Part shown: one piece after another, positions 5,506 through 64,000 of the stretch
Numbering within the stretch: the stretch's first letter is position 1
Layout of the letters: each line of letters starts with the position of its first letter
Source of the DNA: Spirochaetota bacterium
GTDB taxonomy: Bacteria; Spirochaetota; UBA4802; UB4802
DNA: 64,000 nt
Direction: 5' to 3'
NCBI GenBank assembly: GCA_040756435.1
Contig: JBFLZD010000007.1
Span: 18,099 to 82,098 of the forward strand
Translations under genes and position numbers: made by a program
The notes under the pieces: generated by a model
What the model was told of the DNA's origin: nothing
The model's input: only the letters and a program-made list of their open reading frames with translations
Database searches by the model: none

Positions 5506-6045
5506 CTATTGAGTTTTATCTTTTATTTTTTCCCTGATTTGCTGCATTATTTCTTCATCAGAAAGTTTCTTTCTTAAAACTATTCTATATTTTACTTCAA
5601 ATTTTGTTGGTTCAATCGTTTTTTCGGGAAATGAAAACGTCCAGCGCTGCAGGTCCTGAACTATAAGGTTATCCAGTTCAACCAGAAATGTAAGCTGCGT
5701 TGGTCGTATCTTCATTATTGCACCTGAATCAGGGAATAACCACACTGTTACTATGCCCTCTCGTGCTTCATCAATTTGATTATTCTGTGCCACCTCTTCA
5801 AGTATATACTTATCACCACTTTCATCATTATTACGTGTGATTCTATCCTGATAATGTAACTGAACTACCTGATAGCTATCCGGAGTTATTAATACTCTGA
5901 AAAGCTCCGAACCACTTTTTTCTTCAAGAAATTTTTTATTATCCTGTGCAAATGGATCTTCTTTTTCTTTAATACCTGCAGTATTACATGCTAACAAGGT
6001 TATTAGCATAATAAATAGTATATGTTTCCTCATAACCACCATCAT
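5506..6045 (-). CDS. Putative lipoprotein (signal peptide + Cys lipobox LLAC), unknown function
   Basis: N-terminal hydrophobic h-region followed by LLAC|NTAG. No recognisable catalytic motifs. Confidence 0.5.
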   Translation of the reverse strand: MMVVMRKHILFIMLITLLACNTAGIKEKEDPFAQDNKKFLEEKSGSELFRVLITPDSYQVVQLHYQDRITRNNDESGDKYILEEVAQNNQIDEAREGIVTVWLFPDSGAIMKIRPTQLTFLVELDNLIVQDLQRWTFSFPEKTIEPTKFEVKYRIVLRKKLSDEEIMQQIREKIKDKTQ

Positions 6046-6334
6046 CTCCTTTAAAAATGGAATTCAGTGTAAAGCTAAGCAAATGAAGAATTTTGTTGTT
6101 TGAAAATATTAATTCTTTGCTTTCAGCTCAGAATGATACATTACAATCATATATCAACATACCATTGTCAATAATTTAATGTTATTGGATGTATATATAA
6201 TAGACATTATCAATTCATTAAATACCTTTAGCTGAACTAACCTACTTTACGGCTAATGTATATACTGCATAAGCATACTTGACAAAATAATGAGAACATT
6301 ATAACGTTGTACATGCAAAGGATTTGATGTCCAC

Positions 6335-6517
6335 TTGAGCAATAATAGTATAACAAGTAAATCAATTTTTTCAATACCTTTTTATAGTATTTTAAAACAA
6401 TCAGTCACAATGATATATGCCATAATCAATACCCTTAGTATCACTATATTAGTTTCAATAATAATACTATGTAAATCATTAATTATTCCTAAATGTTTAA
6501 ATTTGAATAAAATATAA
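6335..6517 (+). CDS. Possible small hydrophobic protein (60 aa); its 3' end lies in the conserved 45-nt repeat leader and is followed by a GC-rich hairpin
   Basis: ORF with two hydrophobic segments, followed immediately by a terminator-like hairpin at 6523-6560. It may instead be a non-coding transcript. Confidence 0.25.
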   Translation: MSNNSITSKSIFSIPFYSILKQSVTMIYAIINTLSITILVSIIILCKSLIIPKCLNLNKI

Positions 6518-6560
6518 AATAGTGTACACCCCCGCCGCCTAAGGCGGCGAGGATGTACAC
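6463..6560. repeat. Repeat element A: conserved 45-nt leader (aattattcctaaatgtttaaatttgaataaaatataaaatagt) + GC-rich hairpin GTACACCCCCGCCGCC-taa-GGCGGCGAGGATGTACA followed by a T-run
   Basis: The leader is near-identical to 50283-50326. The hairpin is near-identical to 44734-44772. GC content departs strongly from the AT-rich background. Confidence 0.8.
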
Positions 6561-6664
6561 TTTATTCTTTATGAAATTTTTTAAGTAATTATTACTGTAT
6601 GTAAATTATTTTTTTAGCTAAGCACATCCATAATTCCTAACGTTTATAAAAGAATGAAGTTATT

Positions 6665-7297
6665 ATGTTAGATGACCTTATACAACAACTGCCTGCTTTA
6701 TTAGATAGTAAAAGCAATCCATTACTGTATCTACTTCTGTGTATATCTGCAGTAATGGAAAATCTGATTCCGCCTGTCCCTGGTGATGTTGTTACCGCAT
6801 TTGGTGCTTTCATGGTAGCAACAGGTAAATTACATTTTTTCTGGGTTTACCTGTCAACAACGGTTGGTTCAGTTATTGGATTTACACTTCTTTTTTTGGT
6901 TGGCAAGTTTTTTGGCAAAGAACTGCTGATCAAAAAAAACTTTACTTTCTTCAAAAAAGACGCTATATTAAAAGCTGAGCAATGGGTACAAACATACGGA
7001 ATATGGCTGGTTTTAGCCAACCGTTTTTTACCCGGTATTCGCAGTGTTATTTCTTTGACTGCAGGCTTTTCAAATTTATCTACATATAAAGTCCTGTTGT
7101 TTTCATTTATCAGTTCATCAATATGGAATCTTATTCTTATATACTTAGGATATTCATTGGGCAATAACTGGCTTACAGTACAGAGTAAAGTTAGTCACTT
7201 TTTATCACAATATAGCAAAGTAATAGGTCTGCTTTTATTATGTCTTGTAATAATCTACTTTTTTATTAAATTAAAAAAATATGTAGCCAAAAAATAA
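6665..7297 (+). CDS. DedA/SNARE-associated (VTT-domain) family membrane protein
   Basis: LIPPVPGDVVTAFGAF motif typical of DedA. Multi-TM, about 210 aa. Confidence 0.8.
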   Translation: MLDDLIQQLPALLDSKSNPLLYLLLCISAVMENLIPPVPGDVVTAFGAFMVATGKLHFFWVYLSTTVGSVIGFTLLFLVGKFFGKELLIKKNFTFFKKDAILKAEQWVQTYGIWLVLANRFLPGIRSVISLTAGFSNLSTYKVLLFSFISSSIWNLILIYLGYSLGNNWLTVQSKVSHFLSQYSKVIGLLLLCLVIIYFFIKLKKYVAKK

Positions 7298-11068: not shown

Positions 11069-13282
11069 TTACTCATAATCTTTAATAAATGCAGACACCC
11101 TGCGTGCCACAACCTTACCTTCTTCACCACGGGTAATCCCATGGCTTTTTGAATGCACCATGGTAAATTCCTTCTTTTCAGAGGGGATCTTCATGAACAT
11201 TTCAAATGCACCCTTTGGGTCCACAGTCTTATCACCTGTACCCTGCATAATTAACACTGGAATATGTATATCAGTAAGCCGCTCTTCCACAAGGTTCATT
11301 AATGATTCCATTTGGTGAATGCCCGAAACAGGATTTCGCAAATAGTTGATATCCGGGTTATCCGGATGATTGGGAATATAATCCAGTCTGCCAATTTTTT
11401 TTATTTTTAAAAATGAAAGAAATTTATTCCAGGTATCCACTACTGGAGCAAGGCCTGCAGCAATATTCTGCAGTCTAAACGGTGCGCTGATAGCAATAGC
11501 ACCCTGCAGCACATCTTTCTTATTGGCAGCATGCAATAGTGTAAGCCCGGCACCTGTTGAGAATCCACACAAAAATATTTTTTGAGTACTATTCTTTAAA
11601 ACAATGTACCCCCGGTTCACCGATTCATACCACTCTTCAAAGCTTCGCGTTGCTAAATCCTCAGGTGATGTACCATGACCCCGCAATCGTGTACAATACA
11701 CTGTATACCCTTTTTTATACAGAAATTCAGCCAACTGTCGCATCTCTTCAGGTGCTGCCATATATCCATGAACTAGCACAATTCCAGTGCACGCAAACCA
11801 TCTTTTTTTATACAAAGGCATCCCAATATGCTTTGGCTTTGTTTCACCCTGTTTAAAAAATTCTTTATAGTCTTTTTCAAATATCTCTATATCTCTTTTA
11901 TAAAAACTTTTGACAAGCTTACGCCGTATACAAAACATTGGGGTAAAGAAAACTCTATCAAGCTTTTTAACCACCTGATCTAACGGCTCAATCTCATTTT
12001 TTAAAACTTCAACAATATTATCTTTCCGTATGGTGTGAAATTCATACAGTCTGGAAAACTTTTCCTTATTTTTATATATAATCCCATCCTTAATTGAAAT
12101 TAATCCTTCAGATTTTGCTGCATCTATAAAATCATTGTATCTTCCATGAGGATCATCGGTTAATAGATATCCCTGTTTCAGCTGAAGTGACGTGTGACAT
12201 GTAGCTAAATTCAATTTTTTTACAGCTTCTATTGCACAATACGCTTTAGTTTTAAAATCAGTTTCTTTAATGCAATTCTTTGTTTTAGTCAAAAAATACG
12301 AAAATATATGATCATGATTAAGGGTTGTCATACCATAAATATCACGCATATACCGGTACATGATATCAATTGCTATCTTCCTGAGTAACACATCAGATTG
12401 TAACTCTTGCGGATCCAAATACAATTTCCTGCTTTTAATTTTTTGTTTTGCAAGATAGCTTTTTAAATAGGGGCTTATGGCAATGGGATTACCAAAATTA
12501 ATATCAATATCAACCCCTTCAACAAGCATTGTCCCTTCAACTTCAAGTTCCTCTTCAATACGCTCTGGCAGGGATTTTACCAGTTTGTTTGCAATTTTAT
12601 TGATTACATTGGCACGCGCTCTGATTGGGAAATAGGTAATATTAACAGGTACTATATACGTTTCCTGGTTTGTTATGTGCGATAGTTCCTGCTGAGATAT
12701 TCCAAAGTGTGCCATCAGATTGTTCAGCTCATCACAGGCATTGCGCTCATTACAACTTTTGAGCTCCTCCCTATAAAATTGTGCACGTAATGCAATAAAA
12801 GCTGCTCCGGTATGAGGGGGCCTTCGTATCCCTGAATTGTACACCATATATTTCCCACGCTCAACAAGCTTTTTATCCTTAACCATCTGGCCTTCGGGGA
12901 ATATGATGCAATCCATATCACCACGAAGCAATGCTCCAATAAACTTTACATCCCGCAGAGGGTCTTTAGTTGACACTGCCCCCACCTTTTCCATGAATTT
13001 GCCAAACCCGCCAACAAAGAAGCTATGGTGAGCAAGCGAATAAATATATTTCCCTGTGATTTTATGAATCACATTGGGCAGGAAAAATGTTTCCATACGG
13101 GTGAAATGATTTACCACAAAAACTACCGGTGCTTTGGGAATTCTATCAGCATCATGTACGCGTATATCAGCCTTACTGAATTTTGCAAGTATATCAATTG
13201 CCTTGCCTGTTAGATTTAATAGATTGTAGGATAAATCCATGGCTCTTCCCTTATTAATATGTATTATGTTTAAAATCTTCAA
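11069..13282 (-). CDS. Fusion protein: PlsC-type lysophospholipid acyltransferase domain + C-terminal alpha/beta-hydrolase (lysophospholipase/esterase-like)
   Basis: N-terminal half has acyltransferase block I ([10 protein letters not shown]-x4-D/E) and block III (IIFPEGQ). C-terminal half has the nucleophile elbow GFSTGAGL (G-x-S-x-G) and an alpha/beta-hydrolase topology. Confidence 0.7.
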
Positions 13283-20216: not shown

Positions 20217-20987
20217 TTACTTTTTTTGAGCTATCCGTTTAACCTGATAGGTTTTAAAGGCATTGATATTATAATTCATTTTACAGTATTCTTCTATTTC
20301 AGGGTGGATTGTATATCCAACCATAAATCCAATTACATCTGATTGCAAATATACTCTAAGCCTCTCAAGCATTTTTGCAAATCTATCTATATCCCGTTTA
20401 CCAGGTTGAGCCTTACATTCACCAATAATATATACATCCTTATCATTTTTTACAGCTTTAACATAAATATTAACTTCGTCATACTTGCCACTATCATATT
20501 GTATGTATTTTCTTTCTACCTCCTTAGCTTCTGCACCATATTGATTATAAACAAAATTTTCAATATACGGTATCAAATTATCCTCAATCCCATAGCCTAC
20601 AACCATTGACAATCCACCTACCTGCTTTTTTAAATCATCAACAGTCAAAATGAGATTTTTCAAAACATCTTCTGTCCTTTTCTGTGCTTCTGCTAATTCC
20701 TCAACACGCTGCTCTGTCCTCTTCTGTGCTTCTGCTAATTCCTCAACACGCTGCTCTGTCCTCTTTTGCGCTTCTGCTAATTCCTCAACACGCTGCTCTG
20801 TCCTCCTTTGTGCTTCTGACAGCTCAACTACATTTTCAGTTAACACACGAAATTCTTCTTTAGTTACTGATTGATTGATTTCATTATATATTTTTATTAG
20901 AAGATTGGTCAATACAGTAGCTTCTTTCTCGCCAAAGGTTTCTTTTAAATTTTGATAAATTTCAAACGTATTAATCATTCCCAACAC
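20217..20987 (-). CDS. Coiled-coil tandem-repeat protein with C-terminal PD-(D/E)XK nuclease-like domain; function unknown
   Basis: Three perfect 14-aa repeats ([14 protein letters not shown]) encoded by 42-bp DNA tandem repeats. C-terminal YDEVNIY...[10 protein letters not shown] fits a D...(D/E)xK restriction-endonuclease-fold motif. Confidence 0.5.
20665..20830. repeat. 42-bp tandem direct repeat x ~3.3 (unit gcttctgctaattcctcaacacgctgctctgtcctcttctgt) inside the coiled-coil gene
   Basis: Near-perfect copies at 20686-20727, 20728-20769 and 20770-20811, plus partial flanking copies. Confidence 0.9.
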
Positions 20988-25467: not shown

Positions 25468-25667
25468 GCGTTACAGGTAATAAAAAAACCTGCTTATAAA
25501 ATTTGCATAATGATAGCTGTTGTACAAGGTATGTCAACAATATTTAGTAAAAAAATATTATTTTTTTTCACATTAAAAATGAAGCATACAGTTAATAGAT
25601 TAAAATATTTTGGCTCCCACCGCTGCAACGGTAGTAGTCTACATCAATAAAAAATTCATGCAGTACA

Positions 25668-30870: not shown

Positions 30871-31143
30871 TACGAGTTCATTATATAGTATAATGAATAC
30901 AAAGTTATTTATGGTATTTAATAGTAAATGGCGTTTTGCAATAACACATTTGTAGTATAGATTTCCATCATTCCTTCCATTTCCTGTTTTGGATGGCTTT
31001 ATGTTTATTATCCAATAGAACATATCCCTATCAGCATTGCTGATTATTATTTGCACAGTTTTTTATATTATATTTCAATTTGTAGTTGCAATTTGTTCCG
31101 ATAGTAGTATGATTGTGTTATACATATACTTTGGAGGGAACAT

Positions 31144-31596
31144 ATGAATATAGAAACGACCACCTGTATTGTTTCTGAGCATTTAGAACTTTTCAAACAC
31201 TATGCACCTCTGTATAAATTACCACTGCATACCTTTATTATTAATTTTATAAACTATGTGCTCTCGTATAAACGCATCCCGGTAAAAAGCTATAAACGGT
31301 TGCAATATAGAAAGCGGTATCAAACCTGGAAGCGGGTACATCTGTATTTGTATGAGAATGAGTATGAGTTTGTGATGGATGTGCGCAAAATATGTAAGAT
31401 GTCACTGGCTAAGGTTATAGCCTATTGTGTAGAGAATTATCTGTATGATTTTCTTGCTGCATTAGACAGTGAAGAAAATACCGATAACTATCGCTTTAGC
31501 GGCTACACATTTTCATTTTATTTAGAAGAAGGCATCCCGTGTTGTCAATTTTACTGGGGACCACCGCCAGAATTGGTGAAACTCGCCACCCAATAG
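31144..31596 (+). CDS. Hypothetical protein (150 aa), no recognisable domain
   Basis: ORF with plausible RBS (GGAGGGAA) and basic/aromatic-rich composition. Confidence 0.35.
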   Translation: MNIETTTCIVSEHLELFKHYAPLYKLPLHTFIINFINYVLSYKRIPVKSYKRLQYRKRYQTWKRVHLYLYENEYEFVMDVRKICKMSLAKVIAYCVENYLYDFLAALDSEENTDNYRFSGYTFSFYLEEGIPCCQFYWGPPPELVKLATQ

Positions 31597-32155
31597 CCCC
31601 ACAACTAAAGCTGATAGCTTAAAATAAAATATAAGTATACTTTTACACAGCTAATAGTATATCAGCCTATTATCTTAGTTACTCCATTTATAACAAAGAC
31701 AAACGTTTTCTTTTCTACGCTTCTGTCGGTTGTATCAGTATTCCTCAACTAAGCAATATGAAGATATCTTTTAACAGTATTTGTTATTATGTTACCACAC
31801 ATCATGATTATTGGCCTTATCTGTATTATTCTACAAACTACAATGCCACCGCCTAAATTGATGTAATACCTATAATTTGATGAGCATACAGCGTTATGCA
31901 CTCCTTATTATATGTGCATTGATATATGTTTTGGTTTATGCTTTGAGTAATATGATGCGCACATATATATTATTGCGATGGTAACTCATATACACATTTT
32001 TGCATTATTACTCAAAGTCAGTTCCTATATGAAAAGATAGGGTTACGCTAAGTGGCATTCTACACCACATAGTGGTAATCAAATATTAATTTGACAATTT
32101 TTGATTATATTTATACAGATTGAGACTGTATCAACACTGGTTGCTGGAGAAAGCT

Positions 32156-34808: not shown

Positions 34809-35047
34809 TTAAGGCTGATGCACGAATGTATAAACATAAGAAAATAAATAAAAATATTAAATAAAGTGCGCTCCCACCGCCTTTGATAGCATGGTTTATT
34901 ATCAAACATTTTTAAAATATTATTATTTACAAAATTAAAAAAGCATGTACTATATCTTTTTAATTTGTATCAATAAATGATTACTAATTTATGTAATTGT
35001 AAAAATTTAATTTCATGATATGCTACTTACGCAGATTTTGAAAACTC

Positions 35048-36697: not shown

Positions 36698-38089
36698 GTG
36701 GATGGGCTTACCATGATTTCCTTTGAAGGCTACGATAATATAATAAATAAAGTGTATCAGTCAGGCAATGAACATGTGTTTGCCTTCTGGGATCATCTGA
36801 CCAGTGAGCAAAAAAGACATCTTTTACAGGAACTATCGCTCATAAATTTTGATGAATTGAACCAACTATTTGTTCTTACCAAAAAGCATACCATACCAAT
36901 GGATTTTGAACCTGCTCCTTTCACCCGTCTGCCACAAACGCCGGAAGAACACAAAGAATTTGAAAATGCAAAACAGGTTGGAATTGATACTATCAAGAAG
37001 GGCAAGGTTGCCGCATTTGTGGTTGCCGGTGGACAGGGAAGCCGTTTGGGATTTGATGGTCCAAAAGGTATATTCCCAATAGGACCAGTGAGCAATAAAA
37101 CACTATTCCAAATTCACGCTGAAAAGATAAAAGCATATGAAAATAAGTATGGGATTGATATCCCATGGTGCATCATGACATCAGAAGCTAATCACAATGC
37201 AACGGTGGACTATTTTGAAAAAAATAACTTCTTTACCTTGAATAATGACAAAGTTTTTATATTTAAACAAAATATGATCCCTTCCCTTGATGAGCAGGGA
37301 AAACTTATTTTAGAAACACCATATTCAATTTTCAGGAATCCTGATGGTCATGGGGGAAGTTTAACGGCATTATACCAGTCGGGTACGCTTTCTAAACTTT
37401 TAAACATGGGTATTGAAGTGCTGTCATACTTCCAGGTTGACAACCCGCTGGTTCGCATTATTGACCCTGTTTTTATTGGTTTTCATGTAAAACATAATGC
37501 CGAAGTTTCAAGTAAGGCATTACAAAAAGCATACCCTGAAGAGAAAATTGGCGTATTTGTAAAATTTTCCAATGGCAGGATAGGTGTTGTTGAATATTCT
37601 GACCTGCCACAGGAAAAACAATACGAAAAAGATGAGCGGGGCAATTTACGGTACAGTGCAGGTAGTATTGCTATTCATCTTTTTGATACACACTTCATTG
37701 AAAAAATAGCACAAGGTAATATTTCACTACCCTTCCATGTTGCTAAAAAATCCATTCCACAATATTCAAATGATGGAAAAAAAACTATCACCGGCTATAA
37801 ATTTGAAAAGTTTGTTTTTGATGCTCTGCCATTAACTGAACACAATTTCATCATTGAAACGAAACGCGAAGAAGAATTTGCTCCCGTAAAAAACAAATCA
37901 GGTGTTGATTCGGTTGACACTGCGCAGGAACTTATGATAAATCTTTACAAAAAATGGCTTTTACAAAAAAATATAGTAATTCCAAAAGTTGTTGAAAAAA
38001 TAGAAATTTCGCCATTATATGCCGTTGAACCTGATGATGTGCCTGGTTCACTTCCAATACCGCAGCAAAAAGAGGTATATATTTCATGA
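36698..38089 (+). CDS. UDP-sugar pyrophosphorylase (UDPGP family; UDP-N-acetylhexosamine pyrophosphorylase-like)
   Basis: [22 protein letters not shown] nucleotide-binding loop typical of UAP1/UDPGP-family enzymes. Length 463 aa. Confidence 0.75.
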
Positions 38090-41585: not shown

Positions 41586-42188
41586 TTATTCAGGTTTTCC
41601 AACGGGAATAATATAGAGTGGCTCTTCACCTTTTTCTAATGACAATATATCTTTAACCATGTCATCATGAAAAGCCCCAACCATGACGCAGCCCAATCCC
41701 AATGCAACAGCCTGTAAACTAATATTGTGTCCCGCATGTCCTGCCTCCATATGTACATACTGTATACCTCGATTTCCATAACGCCCGGTAGTTCGTTCAT
41801 AGACAGCAGTTATTACAATAACCAATGGTGCCTCTTCAATAAACGTTTGATGCAAAGCTGCCCTGCACAGAGCACTGCGCAAATCATACGGCATCATGCG
41901 TTGTAATCCATGGTTTTTTACACTATACCAATACACACCTTTTTCTAATTTTTCTACATCTCCAATTATCGCATAGCAGTTTAAGGGATAGGTTGCACCT
42001 GCCGATGGGACAGTACGATAGCTACCCTGTGATATACCATTGGCAGCCCACAGTATTTGCGATAGTTCCTGTAAAGTGAGCATAGTATTAGAAAAGCTTC
42101 GCACCGAACGGCGCCTAACAAGCGCTGTTTCCACCGACATTTCACCATCAAATGACGGTTGTGGAAGGTTAATGATATCTCTATTCAT
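41586..42188 (-). CDS. Nitroreductase-family (FMN-dependent) oxidoreductase
   Basis: VRRRSVRSF N-terminal FMN-binding motif. About 200 aa nitroreductase fold. Confidence 0.75.
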   Translation of the reverse strand: MNRDIINLPQPSFDGEMSVETALVRRRSVRSFSNTMLTLQELSQILWAANGISQGSYRTVPSAGATYPLNCYAIIGDVEKLEKGVYWYSVKNHGLQRMMPYDLRSALCRAALHQTFIEEAPLVIVITAVYERTTGRYGNRGIQYVHMEAGHAGHNISLQAVALGLGCVMVGAFHDDMVKDILSLEKGEEPLYIIPVGKPE

Positions 42189-44647: not shown

Positions 44648-44733
44648 AGCATATTTTATTACAATATTATATTAATTTGTATATGTCAAGTTGAATATTA
44701 TAAATGTTGTTTTAAACAATAAAATATAATATA

Positions 44734-44772
44734 CTGTATACCCCCGCCGCCGAAGGCGGCGGGGGTATACAG
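44734..44772. terminator. Repeat element A': perfect 18-bp GC-rich hairpin CTGTATACCCCCGCCGCC-gaa-GGCGGCGGGGGTATACAG, T/A-runs both sides; bidirectional terminator downstream of fliE
   Basis: Perfect palindrome. Same GCGGCG core as element A at 6523-6560. Confidence 0.8.
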
Positions 44773-44845
44773 TATTTTATATTTTGTTCAAATTTCCATA
44801 TTTAGGAATAATTAATGAAAAATTATGGTAACAATGCATCATTCT

Positions 44846-46355: not shown

Positions 46356-46453
46356 CTCTTCCAAGATTGTTGGGAAACCTTATCCATTAATAAGTGATTT
46401 CTCACTCTTTCCGGATTGTTGGGAAACCTTATCCATCATAAAGTGATTTGATT
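46356..46453. repeat. 49-nt tandem direct repeat x2 (core gattgttgggaaaccttatccatYaWaaagtgattt) upstream of flgB
   Basis: Copies at 46365-46400 and 46414-46449 with 34/36 identity. Confidence 0.85.
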
Positions 46454-50282: not shown

Positions 50283-50510
50283 TTACAATAATTATCCCTA
50301 AAATGTGGAAATTTGAATAAAATATAAAATAGTATACCCGGGGGTGTCCCAAAACAATCCGTGGAGTTCTCAATGACGCGGGTGCAAAGTCATTGCGTGC
50401 GTAGCGAAGCAATCTAAATAGCACAGAAGACAAGATTGCTTCGTCACTTCGTTCCTCGCAATGACAGTATGGCAAAAGTCATTGCAGAAGGTGTCTTTTG
50501 GGACACCCCC
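50283..50510. repeat. Repeat element B: conserved 45-nt leader + 171-nt MITE-like element with perfect 15-bp terminal inverted repeats (GGGGGTGTCCCAAAA ... TTTTGGGACACCCCC) and internal GTCATTGCGAG-type nested palindromes
   Basis: TIRs at 50340-50354 and 50496-50510. The internal hairpin gcgaagcaatc...gattgcttcg. The leader 50283-50326 matches 6463-6520. ORF 50269-50475 (-) is a spurious translation of this element. Confidence 0.8.
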
Positions 50511-50695
50511 TATATTCATGTGGTATCGTATGTTTGAATGATTATGGAAAAATTGTTATATTTTTGTTTTCTTTATATATTGTGCTTTAATATTTCTGAA
50601 TTTCATTTTTTAATCATTTTATGTATAAATCGTAATCTCTTTAAAAAATTGTTGAATTATTTACTACATTAAATAACTATAGTTAAAAACTTAAT

Positions 50696-50770
<75 letters not shown>

Positions 50771-53778: not shown

Positions 53779-54015
53779 AAAAAAGGGGACCAAAATACAC
53801 ATCATTGCAATTACACTGCACCCGCGTCATTGCGAGGAACAAAGTGACGAAGCAATCCCATAGTTGCAAGTGCCGCAGGCGCGTGGCAATCTCATCTTCT
53901 GCGTCATTGAGATTGCCCACTTAGACAAGCTTGAGGACAAGCGCTACGCTCGCAATGACATTGCACTCACGTCATTGCGAGCCCCCACGGTTTGTTTTGA
54001 GACGGTCCCTTTTTT
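53779..54015. repeat. Repeat element C: GTCATTGCGAG-type composite palindromic element between convergent bfr and flavin-reductase genes
   Basis: Contains cgtcattgcgaggaacaaagtgacgaagcaatc (reverse complement of the core of element B), plus hairpins ggcaatctca...tgagattgcc and ctcgcaatgac...gtcattgcgag. Imperfect terminal IR aaaaggggaccaaaa / ttttgagacggtccctttt. Confidence 0.75.
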
Positions 54016-62248: not shown

Positions 62249-63217
62249 ATGGTAAATGAAAACAATATAACACTAACAGTCCCCGAAGAATATGCTGGGA
62301 CCCGCATTGATGTGTTTATTTACAATGCACTTGAAGAGGAACTATCGCGAAGCTTTATACAAAAACTATTAAAAAACAACCATATTACAATACACGGAAT
62401 GCCTGTAAAACCAAATTACAGGGTAAAACCAGATCAACAAATACATATTCTCATCCCACAGCCTGAAAAATCAACCATTGAACCCGAGGATATACCCTTG
62501 CATATTTTGTATGAAGATAACGATATTGCCATACTCCATAAACCTGCAGGGATGGTAGTGCATCCTGGTGCCGGCAACACCCAGCACACATTGGTAAATG
62601 CTTTGCTATATCACTTTAAGGGCCTTTCTTCAATTGGTGGTGTTGAAAGACCAGGTATTGTCCACAGGCTTGATAAAGACACTGAAGGCCTTATGATCAT
62701 AGCAAAAAATGATACTGCACACAATGTGCTTACAAAATCATTCCAGAGCAGAAATGTCATCAAAAAATATGAGGCGATAGTTACCGGAAAACCATCCATA
62801 CCAACCCTTACAATCAACAAACCCATAGAACGCCATCCCAAATATGGCCATAAAATGACTGTACGTGATGATGGCAAAGAAGCCATAACTCATTATACAC
62901 TTCGCCAAGTATGGCACACACCGCACGGTGTATTCTCACATCTGAACATACAGATATTTACAGGAAGAACACACCAGATAAGGGTTCATTTATCTTCGAT
63001 AGGGCTTCCCATTGTTGGCGACAAGCTTTATTCCAAGAAATGGGAAAAATATAATGTCCCATTCATGTTGCTTGCTTCAACCTATTTAGCATTTGAACAT
63101 CCAGTTACGGGGAAACTTCTACAATTTTCTATTGACTTACCACAGCACATGAAGGATTTTATAAAAAAGATTAACACGATGGCATTTGAACACATAAAAA
63201 CAGAGCACTATGACTAA
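62249..63217 (+). CDS. rluD: 23S rRNA pseudouridine synthase, RluA family (RluD-like)
   Basis: S4-like N-domain and catalytic HRLDKDTEGLMIIAKN motif. The ORF is open from 62195 but the Met at 62249 (MVNENNITL) is the likely start. Confidence 0.85.
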   Translation: MVNENNITLTVPEEYAGTRIDVFIYNALEEELSRSFIQKLLKNNHITIHGMPVKPNYRVKPDQQIHILIPQPEKSTIEPEDIPLHILYEDNDIAILHKPAGMVVHPGAGNTQHTLVNALLYHFKGLSSIGGVERPGIVHRLDKDTEGLMIIAKNDTAHNVLTKSFQSRNVIKKYEAIVTGKPSIPTLTINKPIERHPKYGHKMTVRDDGKEAITHYTLRQVWHTPHGVFSHLNIQIFTGRTHQIRVHLSSIGLPIVGDKLYSKKWEKYNVPFMLLASTYLAFEHPVTGKLLQFSIDLPQHMKDFIKKINTMAFEHIKTEHYD

Positions 63218-63638: not shown

Positions 63639-64000
63639 TACAGCAACAAATATTGAAATTGTGGCACTGAGCTACAACGGTGTAGTAGCAGATAAAACCA
63701 TGCAAACGCACCATTCACATTCAGTTACCCTATTTGACACTATTGACAGTGCATGCAAAGAGGTAAACACCACAATACACAGCATCCAGTGTATAGGCGT
63801 TGGCATTGGGCCCGGTTCATTCACTGGAATCAGAATAGCAGTTACCACTGCGCGCATGCTGGCACAGATTTTACAGGTACCGCTGGTAGGCATACCAACC
63901 CAGCTTCTTTTTGCATGTGCGATAGTTCCTAGTAATGCCCATTGCATCGTAGCATTTGATGCAAAGAAAGGAAGAGTCTTTGCTGCTCGTTATCATCTAA
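63619..64000 (+). CDS. tsaB: tRNA threonylcarbamoyladenosine biosynthesis protein TsaB (YeaZ), 3' end outside window; TTG start
   Basis: LNILLLDTATNIEIVALSYNG...GVGIGPGSFTGIRIAVTTARMLAQ. RBS AAAGGAGG at 63601. Frame open to the window end. Confidence 0.8.
   Translation, partial: MNILLLDTATNIEIVALSYNGVVADKTMQTHHSHSVTLFDTIDSACKEVNTTIHSIQCIGVGIGPGSFTGIRIAVTTARMLAQILQVPLVGIPTQLLFACAIVPSNAHCIVAFDAKKGRVFAARYHL

Follow-up and report, generated by a model that had tools for sequence, protein, structure and literature searches.

The 64-kb stretch of Spirochaetota DNA analysed here (the window) contains a short dispersed repeat that we call element A. One copy, W1, lies in a region with the gene order coiled-coil gene, 175-aa gene, DedA and Lon. 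(This order is shared with two related loci that we collected, L061 and L059; we number such loci with an L.) A second copy, W2, lies beside fliE, and a third, W3, is a left arm joined to another repeat, element B. A profile search of the window found exactly these three copies: W1 on the plus strand, W2 on the minus strand (44701-44817), and W3, with its left arm only, on the plus strand. The features at W1 are:

6335-6517, plus strand: 60-aa open reading frame with a TTG start, an artefact in AT-rich intergenic DNA; its last 41 nt lie in element A
6468-6476, no strand: left copy of the W1 target-site duplication (TSD), TATGTAAAT, 9 bp, present as a single 9-mer at the empty sites L061 and L059
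6477-6597, plus strand: W1, full length (121 bp), identified by nhmmer (121 bits), alignments and fold
within 6477-6597, plus strand: terminal repeats of W1, CATTAATTATTCCT on the left and AAGTAATTATTACTG on the right
6522-6560, no strand: central GC-rich palindrome of W1, with an 18-bp stem and a 3-nt loop, terminator-like on the minus strand
6598-6606, no strand: right copy of the W1 TSD, TATGTAAAT, 9 bp, a perfect match

The first-pass annotation of the window had described a 45-nt leader followed by a GC-rich hairpin, shared between distant loci. The repeat is real and far beyond chance: a 25-mer (AAATTTGAATAAAATATAAAATAGT) occurs three times in the window, at 6499-6523 (plus), at 50309-50333 (plus) and, with 2 mismatches, at 44771-44795 (minus), and shuffled sequences are expected to contain none. 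The leader exists too, but it is a 43-mer at 6481-6523 rather than at 6463-6520, and its partner is at 50290-50333 (the two agree at ~40 of 44 positions, with a single indel). The positions given for the hairpins, 6522-6560 and 44734-44772, were correct. The leader does stand beside two different GC-rich modules, as that annotation had it, but a copy of the leader, in inverted orientation, adjoins the twin hairpin at 44734-44772 as well. (The arms of W1 and W2, 6476-6566 and 44728-44818, are inverted relative to each other and 86% complementary over 91 nt.)

When the window copies are aligned with loci from metagenome-assembled genomes (MAGs), conservation continues to the right of the hairpin, as far as 6597. 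The consensus from this alignment is ~121 bp long. Its left part is CAyTAATTATTCCTAAATGTGGAAATTTGAATAAAATATAAAATA-GTGTACACCCCCGCCGCC-TTC-GGCGGCGGGGGTGTACAC, and after GGCGGCGGGGGTGTACAC it continues with TATATTCATTATGAAATTTTTTAAGGAATTATTrCTG. Element A thus has a 45-nt AT-rich left arm, a GC-rich palindrome with a perfect 18-bp stem, and a 38-nt right arm. Its ends are imperfect inverted repeats (CAyTAATTATTCCT...AGGAATTATTrCTG), so that it begins with CA and ends with TG; CAyTAATTATTCCTAAAT and the reverse complement of the right end, CAGCAATAATTCCTTAAA, match at ~13 of 18 positions. The borders are sharp: in 22 aligned copies, similarity ends at CAyTAATT on one side and at ATTrCTG on the other. 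The whole element is a long imperfect palindrome (W1 folds with -36.4 kcal/mol, z = -6.1). Its 121 bp are non-coding, the sole open reading frame being the 60-aa frame that crosses its boundary.

We have several pieces of evidence that element A was inserted where it lies. First, the 9 nt on either side of A tend to be direct copies of each other. Among 46 pairs of ends, 16 have a match at 9 of 9 positions and 6 at 8 of 9. (By count, ~27 of the 46 pairs are genuine copies, and the remainder are spurious pairings of motifs.) If the register is shifted by 1 to 12 nt, this signal is essentially gone, homopolymer runs excepted.

Second, there are empty sites for W1. With 6477-6606 removed, the window is colinear with L061 and L059, each of which has a single ...ATGTAAAT; their DedA proteins are 94% and 91% identical to that of the window.

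Third, there is an empty site between fliE and fliF. L025 has the arrangement ATAATTTTT-[A]-ATAATTTTT there, and in L058 (FliE 94% identical) just one ATAATTTTT precedes the same right flank. L057 (FliE 87% identical) also lacks A at this place.

[quoted passage not shown] It has every sequence feature of a bacterial MITE except an identified autonomous partner. The stretch called a leader is the left arm of this MITE, and the proposal that it is primarily the 3' end of a small RNA is not supported, given the TIRs, the TSDs, the empty sites and the lack of an Rfam match. (At the gathering score, the only Rfam match in the window was a tRNA gene at 50696-50770, and a permissive scan of 6300-6700 gave at best 29.7 bits, against a gathering score of 65.3.) The suspicion that the 60-aa frame is an artefact was correct, since its 3' end is supplied by the inserted element and is missing at the empty sites.

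The duplications and empty sites point to a staggered cut: a transposase, presumably supplied in trans, would cut an AT-rich target with a 9-bp stagger, which would leave a 9-bp duplication around A. Among insertion sequences, TSDs of 9 bp occur in the IS4, IS5/IS903, IS1 and ISLre2 groups. We found no autonomous element with A-type TIRs in the window or in ~400 kb of related loci. When the loci were searched for long repeats and for pairs of A-type ends separated by 0.7-2.3 kb, only an unrelated IS1182-family element nested in A came up. As no autonomous A-type element was found, we infer the mobilisation of A, and the family of its transposase, indirectly.

Element A is not limited to the two loci where it was first noticed; dozens of copies exist, which bears out its description as a modular, dispersed repeat. 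A genome scan for the core, with one genome per species, found it at five loci in two Spirochaetota MAGs, Uz-U4-13 (four loci) and AMR_MDS_4586. A metagenome scan gave 42 more loci, nearly all of them from sample Ga0067045. Overall, counting left arms, we find at least 46 distinct copies in public Spirochaetota MAGs and metagenomes; three copies are in the 64-kb window. The element was absent from the plasmid and viral collections that we searched, and comparing the collected loci yielded no filled and empty versions of one site. Copies often lie at contig ends, which is typical of repeats that break assemblies. All 30 copies with a scorable context are intergenic. W1 is as close to copies in other assemblies as it is to W2.

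Might element A instead be a selected RNA or regulatory module, such as a leader with an intrinsic terminator (where a small RNA ends, or a portable terminator that works in both directions), that was kept by selection and not spread by transposition? The hairpin with its T-rich tail is indeed scored as terminator-like. The prediction is for transcripts that enter from the right arm (tail TATTTTATATTTT), which is opposite to the orientation of A; the tail for transcripts from the left arm, TATATTCATTAT, is weaker, and the hairpin of W2 scores on both strands. The stem is also well conserved: over 22 distinct copies, pairing is kept in 96% of stem cells and compensatory double changes are seen at 8 of 18 pairs, values that none of 500 shuffles reached. 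In the arms, column identity is 95% among copies that come from several MAGs and metagenomes. But the TSDs and the precise empty sites show insertion, and Rfam has no match. Covariation within a DNA palindrome has another possible origin as well, as it can come from the correction of quasi-palindromes by template switching. Also, mismatches in the stem are G-T (13) and A-C (8) in similar numbers, so there is no sign of selection on one RNA strand.

The genes around element A argue against this alternative too. In ~27 copies where both flanking genes could be scored, 11 contexts are divergent, where a terminator has no obvious job, 15 are tandem, and just 1 is convergent. In the tandem contexts, the two orientations of A are about equally frequent (7 and 8), with no bias. 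Nothing in these surroundings supports a role of A as a dedicated terminator or small RNA. Overall, we consider it improbable that A is a selected module rather than a MITE.

If A is a MITE, its hairpin may still matter when it is transcribed. Judging from the predictions, it would then probably act as a terminator or as an RNA-stabilising structure, mainly for transcripts from the right arm. Such an effect would be a side effect or a co-option, not the nature of the element. We read A as a selfish element, whose palindrome may be kept by its own biology or by palindrome-correcting replication errors. The conservation of the arms and the covariation in the stem could reflect selection on function as well as recent mobility. 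(We rejected two other candidate signals in A. The leader is not a promoter, as hexamer matches occur only in the duplicated target and none is intrinsic to A; and the RBS-like AGGAAT at the ends of A is not a fixed ribosome-binding site, as its distance to a start codon ranges from 29 to 819 nt.)

W2 lies at the end of a conserved flagellar region. Its features are:

44701-44727, minus strand: degenerate sequence that replaces the right arm of W2 and resembles an inverted left arm
44728-44817, minus strand: W2, left arm and hairpin (44734-44772) followed by 6 nt of the right arm; identity with L025 is 98% up to here
44818-44826, minus strand: left copy of the W2 target site, ATAATTTTT; the right copy is in L025, not in the window

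L025 matches the window at 97.5-98.6% identity between 50467 and 44728, and beyond the latter point the two are unrelated. Synteny of fliE and fliF with L025, L057 and L058 breaks at 44727/44728, just past the W2 hairpin. These three loci go on with fliF, fliG and so on, which is the usual operon order. In the window, W2 is followed by the degenerate stretch and then by a gene for an acyl-CoA synthetase, not by fliF. An independent Logan contig stops beside this junction. The junction reflects either recombination between inverted A copies or a chimeric join. The suggestion that the repeat is a recombination site agrees with its position at this synteny break. In summary, W1 is intact, W2 is intact up to its hairpin and then rearranged, and W3 is truncated. 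(No identical protein is on record for FliE or for the neighbouring 179-aa protein.) In the same region, two 45-nt direct repeats (46356-46400 and 46405-46449; 87% identical, 49 nt apart) lie just upstream of the start of flgB (46293, minus strand), and they may be a regulatory repeat of the flagellar operon.

In W3, the hairpin is absent and element B stands in its place. The features here, with a second copy of B, are:

50286-50339, plus strand: W3, left arm and a remnant of the left half of the stem, GTATACCC
50340-50510, no strand: element B copy 1, 171 bp, with GGGGGTGTCCCAAAA at both ends, in place of the W3 hairpin
50511-50519, plus strand: remnant of the W3 right arm, TATATTCAT, with the rest absent; the flank from 50520 on is common to L062 and L063
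53785-54009, no strand: element B copy 2, 225 bp, not within an A copy, between convergent genes; an A-run and a T-run border it, and there is no duplication

The comparison with the flanks of L062 and L063 indicates that the right arm of W3 is cut after TATATTCAT. We had also considered a right end at ~50557 (ATGGAAAAATTGTT), but that stretch belongs to the flank conserved in L062 and L063. (The tRNA gene at 50696-50770 is on the plus strand, between genes for a YtfJ-like protein and an MBL-fold hydrolase and on the opposite strand to both. It is kept in place in L062 and L063, which lack A and B.)

The source of element B is suggested by L028, which contains a 1,730-bp insertion sequence (IS) encoding a 519-aa transposase of the IS1182 family. 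This transposase matches NF033551 with 468.6 bits (the cut-off is 270), and it also matches the Pfam families DDE_Tnp_1_6, DUF772 and DDE_Tnp_1. The left repeat of the IS is identical to the right end of B copy 1 (22 of 22 positions), and its right repeat matches the right end of B copy 2 at 22 of 25. The interior of B is unrelated to that of the IS. B copy 1 folds strongly, and its GGGGGTGTCCCAAAA ends are in inverted orientation. Since the ends match and the interior does not, B is, by its sequence, a MITE derived from an IS1182-family element of the L028 type. (B also contains an internal sub-repeat, GTCATTGCGAGGAAC..GTGACGAAGCAATC, at 50434-50465 and 53826-53857 in the window, at 1039-1071 in L007 and at 313-748 in L023, where it forms tandem arrays. 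The sub-repeat matches a Helicobacter burdigaliensis contig with 94% identity over 33 nt. It seems to be widespread well beyond the source lineage.)

Other copies of A have been filled in the same way. Inside A copies we found the IS (L028, L029), a solo IS end (L031) and B (W3/L025, L017, L022, L026, L032/L045, L035 and L040), in both orientations. The first-pass annotation had two alternative modules downstream of the leader; they are instead the native hairpin and a nested insertion that replaces it. The native hairpin follows 21 of the 34 left arms whose continuation is readable (22 with the degenerate one of L008), and an IS1182-type repeat follows 8 others. But not every copy has one or the other, as 2 have a collapsed hairpin and 2 continue differently.

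In the filled copies, the inner CCCCGCCGCCTTCGGCGGCGGGG, and at times the whole stem, is absent, and B and the IS have left no duplication. Compared to unfilled paralogues, at least 23 inner nt are absent in 8 to 10 independent filled copies. The outer 9-bp TSDs of B-filled copies are still perfect in L017 (ATTATTAAT), L022 (GATTCATAT) and L026 (AAAAATAAT), and the B nested in A in L032 likewise leaves the outer A duplication intact. Within A, B and the IS have inverted rather than direct flanks (GTGTACAC...GTGTACAC). We rejected GTGTACAC as a duplication made by B, since in other copies (W2, L043 and L047) the halves of the stem are inverted and not direct. We found no orthologous pair from before and after the insertion of B into A, and at the W3 site the relatives L062 and L063 are without A and B. 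So we infer the replacement of the hairpin by comparing paralogous copies. The module in W3 is likely an IS1182-type MITE that replaced the hairpin.

These patterns resemble what is known of IS1272, a member of the IS1182 family. It carries out inverted-repeat-replacing transposition, with targets of 21-85 bp and no duplication (Wan et al. 2017, PMC5678879). The same paper gives a remark by the ISfinder curators that some IS1182 members target palindromes. As IS1182-type insertion is reported to remove stem-loops, the palindrome of A would be a recurrent target. B or the IS would insert by removing the stem-loop of A, leaving no duplication behind. The earlier idea of an insertion site fits, with the hairpin as the target of an IS1182-type element. 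It seems to us about as likely as not that an IS1182-family element and its MITE, moving by stem-loop-replacing transposition, use the palindrome as a preferred landing pad. About a quarter of the resolved A copies have been hit (8 of 34), in both orientations and with variable loss of the stem. A bolder extension would be that selection keeps the palindrome perfect, be it as a terminator or attenuator (for instance, at fliE-fliF) or as a decoy that spares terminators.

Two other sites in the window, 25594-25623 and 34851-34895, share a 30-nt pattern that is A-rich and then has a GC-rich hairpin (..GCTCCCACCGC), and one of them is a weak profile match to A (E = 0.002). These are probably ordinary terminators, and it is possible that they are further IS1182-type targets.

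Given that IS1182-family transposases are the only ones found beside A arms (L028 and L029), A and B might both be deletion derivatives of a single IS, with the arms of A as its outer ends. However, the IS lies in both orientations relative to the A arms (compare L028 with L029), B occurs without A arms (in the window at 53785-54009, and in L013 and L036), A has a 9-bp duplication where B and the IS have none, and the ends of A (CAyTAATT...) are unrelated to the IS ends (GGGGGTGTCCCAAAA). We think it very unlikely that one IS gave rise to both. A perfect GC-rich palindrome dispersed in intergenic DNA also recalls the REP/BIME and IS200/IS605 types moved by Y1 transposases, but we give almost no credence to this, as those elements make no TSD and lack TIRs while A has both, and the conserved unit is 121 bp, with no palindrome in the window without arms.

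As a MITE, element A has familiar counterparts, which we liken to it by their features and not by sequence. The Correia elements of Neisseria (NEMIS), ERIC/IRU and RUP are also ~100-150 bp long and non-coding, with TIRs and a TSD of fixed length; they too have many intergenic copies, fold as long imperfect palindromes and break assemblies. A differs from Correia elements in its target, since it duplicates 9 bp in AT-rich DNA where they duplicate TA, and it differs from other bacterial MITEs in its core, the perfect GC-rich 18-bp stem. MITEs are abundant in genomes of Spirochaetes (PMC11602168). A study of pneumococcus describes dispersed repeats that resemble terminators (SPRITE), and repeats inserted into one another (PMC10969869). 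As described there, SPRITE is like A in being a small dispersed repeat whose core resembles an intrinsic terminator, although its host, pneumococcus, is another organism than that of A.

For B and the IS, the closest counterpart is IS1272 of Staphylococcus: in both cases the element belongs to the NF033551 family, a stem-loop is the target and no TSD is formed, and here too the stem-loop appears to be removed and replaced, with variable loss of the stem. There are several differences. The phylum here is Spirochaetota, another MITE provides the seemingly preferred target with its core, and most events come from the non-autonomous B, which shares only ~22 nt per end with the IS. The L028 transposase is at most 55% identical to any plasmid-borne transposase of the IS1182 family (the best match is from Paenibacillus). 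An IS that targets the palindromic core of another repeat is also seen in enterobacteria, where IS1397 and ISKpn1 insert into REP/BIME palindromes. But those are IS3-family elements that leave the palindrome in place, entering its loop and generating a small duplication.

Element A accounts for a recurrent, highly conserved intergenic sequence that fragments assemblies in an uncultured lineage of Spirochaetota. Recognizing it removes a spurious small open reading frame, and a would-be small RNA or terminator, from the annotation, and it draws attention to 44727/44728 as a likely site of rearrangement or chimeric joining, which bears on the quality of the assembly. As a MITE, A is of a known kind. 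What is less ordinary is the apparent repeated stem-loop-replacing capture of its core by an IS1182-family IS and its MITE, which would carry a mechanism documented in Staphylococcus into a further phylum and over to a non-autonomous element. This little-studied mechanism was put forward on the basis of a few events in staphylococci; the nested copies would be a natural set of independent insertions of this type. If the palindrome is indeed a preferred landing pad, they are the first such set outside staphylococci, and a non-autonomous element can use the duplication-free pathway. An assay could exploit the target in A, since it is short, defined and found in many copies.

We also noticed repeated sequences elsewhere in the window. 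The 11-mer GGAACTATCGC occurs 13 times with at most 1 mismatch, compared to 0.32 expected. Six sites are exact (2636-2646, 12679-12689, 42059-42069 and 63919-63929 on the minus strand; 36829-36839 and 62338-62348 on the plus strand), and seven have one mismatch. The sequence is also found in L025 (~5821-5830), and across 352 kb of related loci there are 40 instances of its 10-nt core. All six exact copies but one are within long open reading frames of unrelated genes, on the coding strand and in one frame (GAA-CTA-TCG); the exception (63919-63929) is beyond the last listed reading frame. This looks like a DNA-level signal, for example one similar to an uptake sequence or to Chi.

The region 31076-31676 includes a 150-aa open reading frame (31144-31596) with no match in Pfam. 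Its DNA is 79-90% identical to pieces of L012, L037, L039 and L045. The gene is either multi-copy or unusually conserved. Finally, 20671-20818 contains three to four tandem units of 42 nt. These lie within the open reading frame at 20217-20987 (minus strand) and are a coding repeat.
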